DNA of 56,271 nt from Candidatus Omnitrophota bacterium (lineage in GTDB: Bacteria > Omnitrophota > Gorgyraeia > 2-01-FULL-45-10), in NCBI GenBank assembly GCA_030695905.1, contig JAUYOL010000023.1:1-56271 (forward strand), given 5' to 3'. Of this stretch, positions 18,685 through 23,688 are shown piece by piece (position 1 is the stretch's first letter; each line of letters begins with the position of its first letter). Below the pieces are notes generated by a model that was not told the DNA's origin, did no database searches, and was given only the letters and a program-made list of their open reading frames with translations. The position numbers were made by a program, and so were the translations under genes.

Positions 18685-18921
18685 ATGAAGGTGTATATAA
18701 ATACGGTTTTTGACGAGATATATTCCCGCGAAGCCAAAGAAGTTGTGCTGCCCGGCGACGAGGGCGAGCTTTCAATAATGGATTTTCACCAGCCAATAAT
18801 ATGCCGCCTTGTAAAAGGCAGCATAAAAGTATTTTCTCCCCAAAAAAAAGATATAATTCACATAGTAGACGGTGTAGCGCACATGGAAGGCAATGTCCTT
18901 AAAATAATGGCGGAGGTCTAA
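18685..18921 (+). CDS. atpC: F-type ATPase epsilon subunit, beta-sandwich domain only (78 aa)
   Basis: EVVLPGDEGELSIMDFHQPIICRLVKGSIKV...IVDGVAHMEGNVLKIMAEV aligns with the epsilon N-terminal domain (GSEGELGIxPGHAPL...). The C-terminal helical hairpin is absent. The start abuts the peptidase stop. Confidence 0.7.
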   Translation: MKVYINTVFDEIYSREAKEVVLPGDEGELSIMDFHQPIICRLVKGSIKVFSPQKKDIIHIVDGVAHMEGNVLKIMAEV

Positions 18922-18925
18922 CGGG

Positions 18926-19138
18926 ATGCTGCGCAATCTTACTATTATAATAATAATGTTCTTGAGCACCTTCGGGCCGGCGCTCGTCATAGGGCTCGTC
19001 GGCGCGGCCGCGGTTAAGGCGGTAGGTAGGAATCCATCGGCCTCGGCGCGTATATTATCCGCGATGATAATAGCGTTTCTCTTCGCTGAAGCCATAGCGG
19101 TGCTCGCGATACTTATGGTCTTCAATATATTTAAATAG
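18926..19138 (+). CDS. atpE: F-type ATPase subunit c
   Basis: 70-aa helical hairpin with the conserved polar loop GRNP and the helix-2 carboxylate in FLFAEAIAVLA. Helix 1 is Ala/Gly-rich (GLVGAAAVKAVG). Confidence 0.75.
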   Translation: MLRNLTIIIIMFLSTFGPALVIGLVGAAAVKAVGRNPSASARILSAMIIAFLFAEAIAVLAILMVFNIFK

Positions 19139-19152
19139 AAAGGCATATATAA

Positions 19153-19906: not shown

Positions 19907-21400
19907 ATGCAAAAGAGTACAGTTATTTCGAGCCTCGATATACGCGAGGTAGGCGCTGTAAAAGAAGTAAAACAGGGCATAGTAAAAGTATCGGGACTTC
20001 CTTCCTGCATATTTGGCCAGCTGGTCGATTTTGGCCACGGCCAAAAGGGTATGGTGATGGGGTTCAATCAGTACGAAGTCCTTGTCATCGTGCTCGGCGA
20101 CGATTCCAGTATTAATACAGGTGATACCGTAACGAGCCGTTCTGAGTTATTGACGGTTCCCGTCGGGCCGGGGTTTGTCGGGCGTGTCGTGGACTGTCTT
20201 GCCAGGCCTATAGATGCCAGAGGCGACATAAAGGCGGCCGATAATTATCCGGTCTTCCGCGAGGCGCTCGGAGTTATGGAGCGCGAGCCGGTGACAGCGC
20301 CGCTAGAGACGGGAACAAAGATACTTGATATGGTGATCCCGATAGGCAAGGGCCAGAGAGAACTTGTAATCGGCGACCGGCAGACGGGGAAGACATCTAT
20401 CGCGCTCGACGCTATCCTGAATCAAAAAGGCAAAAATGTTATCTGCATATACTGCTATATAGGCGGCAGCCAGTCCGCGCTTAAAAAAACGATGAGCCTT
20501 TTAAATGAAAAAGCCGCGTCGCCATACACAATTGTTTTATGCGCTACCGCATCGAGTACGCCTGCCGAACAATACCTTGCGCCATATGTAGCCGCGTGTC
20601 TGGGCGAATATTTCATGTTCAATGGCCAGGATGTCCTGCTCATCTTCGATGATCTTACAAAACACGCGTGGGCATACAGGCAATTATCGCTTTTGTTGGA
20701 ACGGCCGCCGGGCAGAGAAGCTTACCCGGGCGATATATTTTATATCCATTCGCAGTTGATGGAACGCGCCGGTAAATTAAAGGCAGGCCTTGGCGGCGGA
20801 ACGATGACATTTTTACCTATAGCATCCACGCTGCAGGGCGATATCACAGGTTATATACAGTCGAACCTGGTTTCAATGACCGACGGGCAGATATATTTAA
20901 GTTCCGCCTTATTCTATGAAGGGTTTAAGCCGGCGATAGATCTTGGCTTGTCCGTTTCGCGTATAGGAAGCAAAGTTCAGTCTCCCGCTATACGTAATGT
21001 AAGCGGAGGCTTAAGGCTCCAATATGCGCAGTACCGAGAACTCCAGAGACTTACAAGGCTAAGGACGAAATTGTCCAAAGAGGCCATGGATCAGATAAGG
21101 CGGGGCGAGACCTTAAGAGAGCTTCTTATACAGGAGAACGGCAAGCCCGTGAGCATGGCCGAAGAGATAGTGATATTCTACGCGTTCAAAAAACGCATTC
21201 TGGAAATCCTGAAGCCGGATGTGCTGAAAAATTTTAAAAGAGAATTCTTCAAGTATCTTTGCAACGTAGAACCGATGCTGGTCGACAAAATAGAAAAAGA
21301 GCAGACGCTTACCGACGATATAACGACGTCGCTGGACCGTAATATAGTGAACTATTTCCAGGATACGAACCATTTGACAAAAGCTCATGGTTCGTCCTGA
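19907..21400 (+). CDS. atpA: F-type ATPase alpha subunit
   Basis: Walker A GDRQTGKTS, then LAPYVAACLGEYF, DDLTKHAWAYRQLSLLLERPPGREAYPGDIFYIHSQLMERA and ITDGQIYL-like SMTDGQIYLSS. Confidence 0.9.
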   Translation: MQKSTVISSLDIREVGAVKEVKQGIVKVSGLPSCIFGQLVDFGHGQKGMVMGFNQYEVLVIVLGDDSSINTGDTVTSRSELLTVPVGPGFVGRVVDCLARPIDARGDIKAADNYPVFREALGVMEREPVTAPLETGTKILDMVIPIGKGQRELVIGDRQTGKTSIALDAILNQKGKNVICIYCYIGGSQSALKKTMSLLNEKAASPYTIVLCATASSTPAEQYLAPYVAACLGEYFMFNGQDVLLIFDDLTKHAWAYRQLSLLLERPPGREAYPGDIFYIHSQLMERAGKLKAGLGGGTMTFLPIASTLQGDITGYIQSNLVSMTDGQIYLSSALFYEGFKPAIDLGLSVSRIGSKVQSPAIRNVSGGLRLQYAQYRELQRLTRLRTKLSKEAMDQIRRGETLRELLIQENGKPVSMAEEIVIFYAFKKRILEILKPDVLKNFKREFFKYLCNVEPMLVDKIEKEQTLTDDITTSLDRNIVNYFQDTNHLTKAHGSS

Positions 21401-21427
21401 GCGAAGTCGAAGGACCAAGAAAGGCGC

Positions 21428-22300
21428 ATGATCCCAATAGCGGAGTTAAAGCAGAATCTGGAGTTGAATAAAAGCCTGGGCTCCGTAATCGAAACGCTCA
21501 AGGCCGGCAGCGCTATACAGGTGAGAGAATTTCAGGCAAAAAGACGGGCGTCGGATAAATTATTCATGATGCTTAAAGAGTGCTTCGATGCTATATCTAA
21601 GAGAGGCGCGATAAAGCATCCATTATTCTTCTATGATAAAGAACTCCCTTCCTGCATTATCTTGGTTACATCAGACGATGGTTTTGTCGGGGAGTTAAAC
21701 TCGGCTGTTATAAACGCCGCGTTGGAAGAGAGGAAGAGCCAGAACGACGAAATTGTCGTTTTGGGTGAAAGAGGGGCGGGTTATTTTGAAGACCGCAGCG
21801 AATCGTTTATACCCTTTCCCGGTATAAGCGAAGATATAAAACCTGCGGAACTAAGGAGCATTAAAAAACATATAATTAGCCGTTATTCAAATAAAAGGAT
21901 CGGGCAGGTAAAGATAGTTTATCCGGAATCGACGAGTGTGGGATCGTGGAAAGTTGCCGTTACCCAGCTATTGCCGTTAGTTCCGGCCCAGCTAATGTCC
22001 GATACGGCGCAGAACACAAGTAATATAGATCTTAAAGATCTTCTGATAGAGCCTTCTATAAACAGCGTTGCGGAAGGGCTGGTTAATCTTTGGCTGGATG
22101 TTGTGCTTTATAATATATTCTGGTCGAGCAAATTTTCCGAATTTGGAGCGCGGCTCATGCATCTTGAAGGCAGCGAGCAGGAGCTTGGGCGCATGAAACA
22201 GCAATTATCGCTGCAGTATTTTAAGCATGTGCATGCGTTGGCCGACAGGACAATACGTGAGATATTGAGCGCTCGTATAGGATTAGGAAAGGCATCATGA
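21428..22300 (+). CDS. atpG: F-type ATPase gamma subunit (divergent)
   Basis: The size and position between alpha and beta fit gamma. N- and C-terminal helices ([21 protein letters not shown]..., [42 protein letters not shown]) follow the gamma pattern but with low similarity. Confidence 0.6.
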
Positions 22301-23688
22301 GTAATATGGGTAAAGTCATAGCTGTTTCGGGCCCTATAGTCGATGTACAGTTCGAAAGCCATGACGATATGCCGGCGATGTATGAAATAATGACTCTTAA
22401 GACATGTGAGCTTAAGGATGTCGTGCTTGAAGTCGTAGAGCACAGAGAAAATAATATATGCCGCTGTATCGCGCTTGCCCCGACGTACGGCATACAGAGA
22501 AATTCTCCCGTGAAATCCACCGGCCAGTATCTTCTCGTTCCGCACGCTGAAAACGTATTCGGCCGGATAGTGAATGTAATGGGCCAGCCGATAGACGGGA
22601 AAGGGCCGATAAAAGGAGATTCTCTCGTTTCTACAAGGCGTAAGATCAAACCCGAGGTGTTATACTCCGATAAAAAGATAGAATTAAGATACGAGATAAT
22701 GGAGACGGGAATAAAGATAATAGATATACTCTTTCCGCTTATGAAGGGCTCGAAAACAGGTATTATAGGAGGCGCGGGGTTAGGCAAGAGCGTATTGATA
22801 CTGGAAATAATACATAATGTCATTACGAAACGTCGCGGCTCATGCGTTTTTGCCGGCATAGGCGAACGTATAAGAGAAGGCAATGAATTGTACTATGAAT
22901 TTGTAAGAACGGGGTTGCTCGACAGGTCGGTGCTTATATTCGGGCAGATGAATGAATCCCCCGGCGCGAGGTTTGAGGCGGCCAATACAGGTGTCACGTT
23001 TGCCGAATCGCTGCAGGACAAGGGCCAGGATGTGCTCTTCTTCATGGATAATGTATTCCGTTTTTCACAGGCGGGAAGCGAATTGTCGGCGCTTTTGGGC
23101 AGGATACCGTCCGAGACAGGATACCAGCCGACATTGACGACAGAGATAAGCCAGTTTCACGAGCGTATACGTTCGCGCGAGGGGGCCAGCATTACTTCCG
23201 TGGAAGCCGTTTACGTTCCGGCGGATGACCTGACCGACCCGGCCGTAGTGGCTATATTTACGCACCTGGATTCTATAATAACGCTGTCGCGTTCTTACGT
23301 TCAGAAAGGCATATATCCCGCGATAAACCCCTTAGAATCATCCTCCGGGTTTATCGATCCTTATATAATAGGTAAACGTCACTTTGATATAGCGCAGGAG
23401 GTTTTAAGGCATTTCCAGAAACATGATGAATTGCAGCGCATAGTCTCTATCGTCGGAAAAGAAGAGCTCTCCAAGCAGGAGAGGGTCATATTTGACAGGG
23501 CAAGGAAGCTGCAGAATTTTTTAACGCAGTCATTCTTTGTCGCGGAAGCCTATACGGGACAGAAGGGCGCGTATGTGAGCCTGGAAAATACGATAGCGGG
23601 TTGTGAAAAGATAGTATCCGGAGGCCTCGATTCCATTCCGGATGAAAAATTTTACATGATAGGCCAAATAGAGGAAGCCCTTATATAG
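22297..23688 (+). CDS. atpD: F-type ATPase beta subunit
   Basis: P-loop GGAGLGKSV, then [60 protein letters not shown] and [13 protein letters not shown] overlap with atpG. Confidence 0.9.

Follow-up and report, generated by a model that had tools for sequence, protein, structure and literature searches.

What might a set of F-type ATPase genes without subunit a be doing inside an operon for a secretion or pilus machine? The question is raised by positions 1 to 56,271 of contig JAUYOL010000023.1 from Candidatus Omnitrophota bacterium (assembly GCA_030695905.1), a stretch of DNA hereafter called the window, in which six ATPase genes in the order epsilon-c-b/delta-alpha-gamma-beta (18685-23688, all on the + strand) are embedded between the gene of an exported zinc peptidase and that of a GspE-type ATPase. 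F-type ATPases are textbook chemiosmotic machines, and we know of few cases outside mycoplasmas in which such a motor has been taken over for another job. The initial annotation of the window had placed the six open reading frames (ORFs) at these coordinates, where we also find them, and had proposed that they represent an a-less F-type set tied to a type II secretion system/type 4 pilus (T2SS/T4P) machine and recruited for a non-bioenergetic role, a proposal that every test reported below supports. On the basis of sequence comparison, we consider it very probable that this ATPase is non-chemiosmotic and serves the secretion/pilus apparatus. It is also probable that the six products form a dedicated non-chemiosmotic F1/c-ring/b-delta complex, which would be an integral module of an operon of about 30 kb.

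To collect related loci, one genome per GTDB species was scanned with the alpha protein, yielding 80 loci; together with loci derived earlier from beta, 86 were fetched (designated with the prefix L where an individual locus is meant). The a-less ATPase set is present in 77 related loci, in which alpha is 46-83% identical to that of the window. Nine of the scanned loci (alpha identity ≤48%), from Calditrichia, Chloroflexia, Melainabacteria and others, are ordinary a-c-b-delta-alpha-gamma-beta-epsilon operons and were used as internal controls. Subunit a was sought with a hidden Markov model (HMM) of AtpB, built from 12 sequences (Escherichia coli, the nine canonical operons of the fetched loci and two N-ATPases) and run with filters off (--max) on every ORF of at least 45 residues in the window and the 86 fetched loci. 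This model recovered AtpB from E. coli and from all nine canonical operons with E ≤ 1e-79; it found no subunit a in the 56-kb window (best E-value 3.1) and no atpB-like ORF in the 77 related loci, which extend up to 10 kb on each side (best E-value 0.74). AtpI is likewise absent, and phmmer with the AtpR and AtpZ/Q proteins of pAQ7 and Legionella gave no match in the window or in the family loci, in agreement with the original claim that the window holds neither subunit a nor AtpI, AtpQ or AtpR. Moreover, the intergenic gaps inside the ATPase block have medians of 4-30 nucleotides and a maximum of 454 nucleotides across the family, and there is therefore no space within the block for an unrecognised atpB gene of about 700 nucleotides. 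Neither the Pfam scans of the window nor the related loci revealed a conserved polytopic protein of unknown function in the cluster.

The c subunit of the window (70 residues, 18926-19138; PF00137, E = 8.6e-9) contains the RNP loop (GRNP) and the helix-2 carboxylate, Glu55, as previously annotated. To our knowledge, no F-, V- or A-type rotor translocates ions without this carboxylate, and we know of no way in which a homo-oligomeric c-ring lacking it could translocate ions. In 13 of 66 loci, however, it is replaced, by Gln in nine of them and by Phe, Ala, Ser or Met in the others, a variety that implies several independent losses. A search of a protein database with one Gln-bearing c subunit returned 120 distinct homologues with 75-96% identity, of which 56 have Gln and 64 have Glu at the same position. 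Because the two residues swap freely among c subunits as similar as these, the data suggest that the carboxylate is dispensable in the family and that its charge is not under selection. The RNP loop, which forms the dock for gamma and epsilon, is invariant in all 66 loci and all 120 homologues. The Walker A Lys, the GERxRE motif and the Walker B Asp are kept in all 64 family beta sequences examined. In alpha, the variants listed, which are the 12 commonest, all keep Walker A, and the Arg finger is lost only in second tandem copies. Thus, the motor and its link with the ring are conserved, whereas the ion chemistry is not.

The second tandem copies just mentioned belong to 13 loci with two consecutive alpha genes (L042, L060, L062, L065-L067 and L069-L075; e.g. 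L071:9980-12899). The second alpha of these loci always has the Arg finger replaced (LSVSRIG becoming LS[LV]S[IV][IV]GG) and its Walker A kept, and most of the loci are ordered alpha-alpha'-epsilon-c-b/delta-gamma-beta, L042 being an exception. This pattern suggests a hetero-alpha head that may have fewer active sites.

The association with the secretion genes was then evaluated across relatives, as the initial annotation had recommended. Of the 53 loci with sequence long enough to show it, at least 51 have GspE downstream of beta at a distance of no more than 3 kb. The order seen most often is epsilon-c-b/delta-alpha-gamma-beta-GspE; the second, alpha-alpha'-epsilon-c-b/delta-gamma-beta-GspE, occurs chiefly in metagenome-assembled genomes (MAGs) that bear the labels Lentisphaerae, Victivallales or Kiritimatiellae. 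Locus L019, which belongs to the complete genome of Ca. Velamenicoccus archaeovorus LiM, has the same gene order as the window, and four relatives found via beta (66-83% identity) share the same order from the giant protein to GspG; the best beta matches, with 83-90% identity, are in MAGs named Candidatus Omnitrophota or Omnitrophica. Homologous giant genes are situated upstream of the ATPase in 31 of the 45 loci with at least 3 kb of upstream sequence, and 29 of the 77 loci include the peptidase gene in the cluster, where it precedes epsilon or follows GspF. One MAG contains two copies of the cluster (L013 and L068). The synteny giant protein/unk264/(peptidase)/ATPase/GspE-GspF-PilMNO-pseudopilins is kept down to 46% alpha identity (unk264 is a membrane protein of 264 residues described below). 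Since the adjacency of the ATPase genes to gspE recurs across related loci, including that of LiM, it is old and conserved, and chance gene order in this one genome does not account for it. The outcome that the initial annotation had set against its own proposal, an ordinary split operon whose gspE neighbourhood is not conserved, is not what these loci display.

According to the labels of their submitters, the MAGs of the family are assigned not only to Omnitrophota but also to Planctomycetia, Nitrospirota, Lentisphaerae, Victivallales, Kiritimatiellae and Deltaproteobacteria. Unless many of these bins bear a wrong label, the system spans the Planctomycetes-Verrucomicrobia-Chlamydiae (PVC) group and beyond. 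A few apparent variants of the cluster were rejected. The seemingly decayed form in CP070797.1 (L003), in which epsilon, c, b and the N-terminal half of alpha seem to be absent, has a scaffold gap of 100 N exactly there (L003:8253-8352), and the alpha-gamma and beta-GspE fusion ORFs of L011 and L052 also coincide with 100-N gaps (L011:5211-5310; several in L052). CP070797.1 is deposited as a complete Omnitrophota genome of 1.5 Mb, even if it holds such gaps, one of them inside the ATPase cluster; under naive ORF calling, they imitate gene loss and fusion.

We next considered the phylogeny of the catalytic subunits using neighbour-joining (NJ) trees of alpha and beta, reciprocally rooted and calculated from 430 columns with 100 bootstraps. 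The references were few, all of them canonical or N-type enzymes. Against these references the family is monophyletic, with 97% NJ bootstrap for alpha (LiM L019 included) and 81-97% for beta, and the canonical and N-type enzymes form a joint group that leaves the family outside (82% for alpha and 99% for beta). Distances within the family amount to 0.70 for alpha and 0.55 for beta, to be compared with 0.40 and 0.35, respectively, between canonical enzymes of different phyla. The family alpha and beta proteins consequently form their own fast-evolving clade, set apart from canonical and N-type enzymes in this part of the tree comparison that had been suggested for the locus.

We turn next to the remaining features of the subunits. 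Alpha (497 residues, 19907-21400; NF009884, 581.6 bits with a cutoff of 554) also exceeds the cutoff of TIGR00962 (553.4 vs 484), and beta (463 residues, 22297-23688) scores 562.1 bits with TIGR01039, of which the cutoff is 463. They are the only two subunits that reach the canonical atpA/atpD cutoffs of NCBIfam. Alpha has intact Walker A and Arg finger and an N-terminus shorter by 13 residues than that of E. coli; beta has intact Walker A Lys, catalytic GERIRE (within GERIREG) and Walker B Asp, with EELSKQE in place of DELSEED. The motifs that had been quoted for the two proteins are therefore present and the catalytic residues intact. In contrast, the scores of the other subunits remain under their equivalog cutoffs: gamma (290 residues, 21428-22300; PF00231, E = 1e-36), already annotated as divergent, has 84.5 bits with TIGR01146 against a cutoff of 194, epsilon 51.3 against 67, c 23.2 against 44 and b 43.3 against 65.5, and delta too is under cutoff. 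Hence, of the features that define a canonical F1Fo enzyme only the alpha and beta cutoffs are found here; subunit a, an invariant c carboxylate, a full delta and the cutoffs of the other subunits are not.

Epsilon is reduced to 78 residues (18685-18921), and it consists of the beta-sandwich domain only, as initially described (PF02823 covers residues 1-77, E = 2.5e-15). Its C-terminal helical domain is present in none of 60 family members, which have C-terminal extensions with a median of 0 and a maximum of 9 residues; for comparison, canonical epsilon has a total length of 135-144 residues. The stalk subunit b/delta (239 residues, 19153-19872; PF00430 at residues 7-132 and PF00213 at residues 165-231) has one N-terminal transmembrane (TM) helix and a coiled coil, followed by a delta/OSCP part that corresponds to profile positions 100-167 of 172, namely the C-terminal domain alone. 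No atpH gene is present, and delta exists only as this domain fused to b. The protein aligns along its full length with the N-ATPase b model TIGR03321 (8-239 of 246), with a score under cutoff, and has 230-265 residues in 71 loci. The delta-like C-terminus reported for b is thus real, but not the full b-delta fusion: from its domain layout, the subunit is best described as an N-ATPase type of b. The shortness of epsilon and the fusion, both considered unusual by the initial annotation, are indeed seen here but also occur in ordinary ATP synthases, since NCBIfam equivalog models of epsilon with 88-102 positions exist, as do b-delta fusions (PRK13428). A short epsilon alone is not diagnostic, and we regard the two traits as supporting rather than decisive. 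The epsilon C-terminal domain and the acidic DELSEED residues, together with the delta N-terminal domain and the 13 N-terminal residues of alpha, are all lost features that restrain hydrolysis or bind full-length delta.

Loci of this kind are already published. Seymour et al. (2023; PMC10066038, Nat Microbiol) reported 'symbiotic' F-type ATPase (sF-ATP)/type-4a pilus (T4aP) loci that they called non-respiratory and found in every Omnitrophota class, with ATPase and T4aP gene sets no more than 10 kb apart in 57 of 66 contigs. The same study states that their alpha clusters with mycoplasma Type 2/3 ATPases, names the locus of V. archaeovorus LiM and mentions separate 'respiratory' F-type enzymes in the phylum. 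We see no essential difference between those loci and ours, for they come from the same phylum, have F-type alpha and beta beside a T4aP/T2SS cluster and show, in LiM, the same order. The window has its ATPase less than 10 kb from T4aP/T2SS genes, a distinct alpha clade that includes LiM and relatives among Omnitrophota, and its locus is a member of the kind described in 2023. As to the details presented here, the accessible text and supplements of that study contain nothing on subunit composition, the missing subunit a or the c carboxylate, nor on the anchor fusion, the c-di-GMP fusion (both described below) or the two-alpha form. Within the limits of that material, no earlier report of the absent subunit a, of the dispensable carboxylate or of the fusions seems to exist; literature searches found no later description of the Omnitrophota symbiotic ATPase system. 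A preprint (10.64898/2026.06.07.730766) detects alpha and beta in 125 of 176 complete Omnitrophota genomes, gamma passing KofamScan in 30, and shows V/A-type subunits to be common in the phylum, counts that fit a divergent gamma and a separate bioenergetic enzyme. A V-type ATP synthase is listed by Williams et al. (2021; PMC8542988) for all their Omnitrophota MAGs.

The closest parallels outside the phylum are the F1-like ATPases of mycoplasmas, which power gliding and the MIB-MIP antibody-cleavage system (PMC12994834, PMC3369863). These Type 2 (G1 gliding) and Type 3 (F1-like X0, MIB-MIP) complexes likewise have F1-derived alpha, beta, gamma and epsilon without subunit a, evolve fast and lie beside a cell-surface system with very large surface proteins or a protease, although the need for them has been shown experimentally in mycoplasmas only. 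Their seven-gene clusters, however, are without c, b and delta and carry instead 12-TM, 2-3-TM and small cytoplasmic proteins (PMC12994834, PMC3369863), whereas the cluster of the window has a real c subunit, a b/delta stalk and no polytopic unknown, in a diderm host with T2SS/T4P. Its alpha and beta remain far below the cutoffs of the mycoplasma families (NF045863, 426 of 600; NF045936, 322 of 520; NF045858, 435 of 850; NF045934, 398 of 570). On this comparison the cluster would not belong to mycoplasma Type 2/3, while the functional analogy with them looks strong.

The initial annotation had also derived the gene order from that of N-ATPases, which is atpDCQRBEFAG, with no atpH and with b carrying the C-terminal part of delta (Dibrova et al. 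2010, PMC2881411); N-ATPase is reported as a second-copy enzyme working as an ATPase (PMC2881411). The likeness extends to the missing atpH, a b subunit of about 240-250 residues fused to the delta C-terminal part and the partial order c-b-alpha-gamma. Absent from our cluster are subunit a, AtpQ, the hallmark AtpR, a full-length epsilon and a two-Glu c subunit with the Na+ ligand set, the Glu that N-ATPase c has in helix 1 being missing from the window c. The N-type cutoffs are not reached either (TIGR03324, 538 vs 750; TIGR03305, 503 vs 752), and N-type alpha and beta group with canonical enzymes, not with this family, in our NJ trees. The suggested derivation finds support in the shared stator of b plus delta C-terminal domain; phylogeny and hallmark genes lend it none.

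Which proteins could the ATPase work with? The gene that stands between the giant protein and the peptidase in the window (17078-17872, + strand) encodes unk264, a bitopic membrane protein of 264 residues without a Pfam family. Its 255 homologues are all named hypothetical and none has a Pfam family. Alignment and an AlphaFold2 model (pLDDT, the predicted confidence score, 79.7) show in succession a signal peptide, a beta-sandwich, a three-helix bundle, one C-terminal TM helix and a tail, which is cytoplasmic, acidic and disordered and ends with a conserved DIEKI motif. We considered whether unk264 could be a hidden subunit a or a known fold and rejected both, for its single TM helix is not a-like and the model has no match in the PDB at E < 0.001 (Foldseek). 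In at least 17 loci (e.g. L029:3-8711 and L043:3-8750) the unk264 module constitutes the C-terminus of the giant protein, and it is tandemly duplicated in two-alpha loci. Because of this fusion, unk264, which is a separate gene in the window, is the inner-membrane anchor of the giant protein, encoded directly before the ATPase genes.

A second link is provided by cyclic di-GMP (c-di-GMP). The beta subunits of L018 (3378-5585) and L038 (4083-6314) end with four C-terminal MshE-type c-di-GMP-binding motifs (NF053729, 244-246 bits), the same module as that at the N-terminus of the neighbouring GspE. These fusions are real, as no runs of N are present. Pilus-type c-di-GMP receptors would be unexpected on a housekeeping ATP synthase. 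Many other loci have an MshEN-like ORF of 150-190 residues between beta and an elongated GspE (716-740 residues). In one relative, the unk264 homologue and the peptidase are separated by an inserted GAF-GAF-GGDEF diguanylate cyclase (L006:3918-5585), consistent with c-di-GMP control of the whole cluster.

The evidence can be assembled into the following working model. The alpha3beta3 head would hydrolyse ATP, and hydrolysis would turn, or at least cyclically deform, gamma and epsilon with the attached c-ring; the stator would be the stalk of b plus the delta C-terminal domain, held by a single TM helix. Since there is no subunit a and no ion path, the energy would not be stored as an ion gradient; a partner located in or at the inner membrane would receive it mechanically, and this partner might be the GspF/PilMNO platform or the unk264 anchor that belongs to the giant protein. 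Besides the ATPase, the operon encodes a T2SS/type-4-pilus-like machine together with the giant surface protein, the anchor that holds it in the membrane and the exported zinc peptidase, and the output of the ATPase could be the assembly, secretion or movement of a surface apparatus for attaching to or attacking cells, under c-di-GMP control. Given that both the rotor anchor and the stator anchor are kept, we infer that relative motion in the membrane may still matter. Coupling via rotation of the c-ring is proposed here only tentatively, and it seems rather doubtful that the ring was kept, without its channel, because it acts as a mechanical rotor which hands F1 torque on to a membrane partner, either itself or by way of the b-stalk anchor. 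If this were the case, it would be the first F-type rotary motor known from a diderm whose work is mechanical and not chemiosmotic, and it would show, in a living organism, the coupling of a rotary ATPase to secretion or filament machinery.

Several points weigh against a non-chemiosmotic ATPase of this type. The c subunit of the window and those of about 80% of the family keep the carboxylate, and ion binding is therefore possible for this member. Retention of a c-ring and a peripheral stalk would be equally expected of a real ion-driven enzyme. The absence of subunit a refers to 56 kb of this genome and to no more than 10 kb per side in the relatives, and the separation of the clade could be exaggerated by long-branch effects, the trees being NJ trees with few references and no mycoplasma sequences. 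Finally, the partners proposed for the b TM helix and for the c-ring are candidates only.

Among the other explanations, the one that fares best, although we hold it to be unlikely, equates the complex with the export ATPase FliH-FliI-FliJ, with b/delta as FliH, alpha/beta as FliI and gamma as FliJ; the F1 head would then unfold, load or gate the giant protein or the pseudopilins, and the c-ring would be a membrane dock without productive rotation. Both systems combine an F1-related ATPase, a b+delta-like stalk, a gamma-like shaft and a secretion machine, with no ion channel of their own, and the architecture of b plus delta C-terminal domain is the same as in FliH and in the E subunit of V/A-type enzymes (PMC2881411). 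The position of the cluster between a giant exported protein and a secretion machine would also suit this explanation, as would the homology of alpha and beta with FliI/SctN, weak as it is (187-207 bits, with cutoffs of 380-620). Yet FliI is a homohexamer and not an alpha3beta3 head, and FliHIJ has neither epsilon nor c-ring; the retention of epsilon and of an invariant RNP loop points to a real gamma-epsilon-c rotor. Furthermore, the T2SS already has its own ATPase in GspE, Pfam scans found no homologue of the type III secretion system export gate in the window, and Sec would be the expected route for the giant protein, given its N-terminal signal or TM segment.

It is quite improbable, in our judgement, that members with Glu55, the window included, are still ion pumps or synthases in which an unrecognised protein replaces subunit a, as in the 'X0' proposal for mycoplasmas. 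The fact that c-ring and membrane-anchored stalk are both kept, with the carboxylate present in some four fifths of the c subunits, agrees with this idea, and conserved membrane proteins that might fill the role are co-encoded (unk264, GspF, PilMN and PilO). However, the cluster lacks a conserved polytopic unknown, and unk264 has a single TM helix with its only conserved basic residue at the membrane edge. The interchange of Glu and Gln in closely related c subunits and a stalk without the delta N-terminal domain also speak against an ion path.

Split atp operons exist, the scores of alpha and beta exceed the atpA/atpD cutoffs, public records give both proteins the name 'F0F1 ATP synthase', and the window c has Glu55 and the RNP loop, but an ordinary housekeeping F1Fo synthase with subunit a encoded elsewhere and gspE beside it by a lineage-specific accident is very unlikely in view of the carboxylate losses (13/66 loci and 56/120 close homologues) with intact catalytic residues, the five subunits under equivalog cutoffs, the separate fast-evolving clade, the gspE adjacency kept down to 46% alpha identity, the two copies in one MAG, the c-di-GMP motifs fused to beta in two loci and the V-type or separate 'respiratory' F-type enzymes that the literature gives for the phylum.

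A non-chemiosmotic motor that serves the secretion/pilus apparatus hence remains the reading we prefer. It describes a family that keeps the rotor ring and the stator stalk, drops the channel and lets the ion-binding residue drift, in a widespread system, detected here in at least 77 species-level genomes, that is hard-wired to a secretion/pilus apparatus and giant surface proteins within a phylum of ultra-small predators or parasites. If force does reach that apparatus, the system could explain how Omnitrophota cells attach to or attack their prey, and it would be a natural system for a c-ring role without ion carrying. There is also a practical consequence: annotation pipelines label these genes 'F0F1 ATP synthase', and chemiosmotic ATP synthesis may be wrongly attributed to Omnitrophota and related MAGs when their metabolism is reconstructed. 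The novelty with respect to the published loci is modest; the anatomical details sharpen the case for a non-chemiosmotic F-type motor and make it experimentally testable.

The gene string that contains the ATPase deserves a fuller description. Every large ORF of the window with a protein-family match is on the + strand, and 86-30773 is one closely packed string from secretin to GspG. It is headed by a GspD/PilQ-like secretin (86-1426; PF00263, E = 6e-44, and PF03958), followed by three proteins with tetratricopeptide repeats (1423-1830, 1841-2449 and 2446-3156; TPR families of Pfam) and, after a stretch of 527 nucleotides without any ORF of at least 100 residues, by a protein of 322 residues with an IS200-like Y1-transposase domain (3683-4651; PF01797, E = 4e-15). 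The latter gene, which separates the TPR genes from the giant gene, may represent the insertion of a mobile element within the operon (window 3157-4651). The giant surface or adhesin-like protein (4667-17002) has 4111 residues with Kelch beta-propellers, DUF2341 and Ig-like repeats recognised by Pfam; unk264 comes next, and then the exported MA-clan zinc metallopeptidase with a HEMAH motif (17869-18684; PF13485, E = 6.5e-19).

The junctions of the ATPase block with its neighbours are as tight as first described: the peptidase gene stops at 18684, one position before the first of epsilon (18685), and beta likewise stops at 23688, directly before GspE (23689). Inside the block, gamma and beta overlap by 4 nucleotides. 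Downstream are a GspE/PilB/MshE-type hexameric ATPase (23689-25359; PF00437, E = 1.5e-129), which has an N-terminal c-di-GMP-binding motif (NF053729 at residues 2-54) and an MshEN domain (PF05157), a GspF/PilC platform protein (25366-26592; PF00482, E = 2.4e-56), a PilM-PilN fusion (26595-28025) and a PilO-like protein (28022-28555), the last two covered by PF11104, PF05137 and PF04350. The string ends with two minor pseudopilins, a GspK-like protein (HHH_3) and the GspG-type major pseudopilin at 30321-30773 (28542-30773 in total; PF07963, PF12836 and PF08334, the latter with E = 1.4e-30). From unk264 to PilO the gene junctions are tight, including some of 0 nucleotides or overlapping, and a simple promoter/terminator scan, which otherwise gave consensus noise only, predicted no intergenic + strand terminator between 17 and 30.8 kb.

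Immediately after GspG, an ORF of 968 residues (30932-33838) has no Pfam match, and a partial homologue with 66% identity follows the cluster in L001. Further downstream of the operon, 33983-45374 and 52739-54856 contain redox and oxidative-stress genes typical of anaerobes, namely those for Rrf2, hybrid-cluster protein, a peroxiredoxin fusion, 2-oxoacid:ferredoxin oxidoreductase and flavodiiron protein, along with ferritin/rubrerythrin-like (PF00210/PF02915) and thioredoxin-reductase-like proteins. GH57 glycogen genes and a ShlB/FhaC-type two-partner-secretion transporter are also found downstream.

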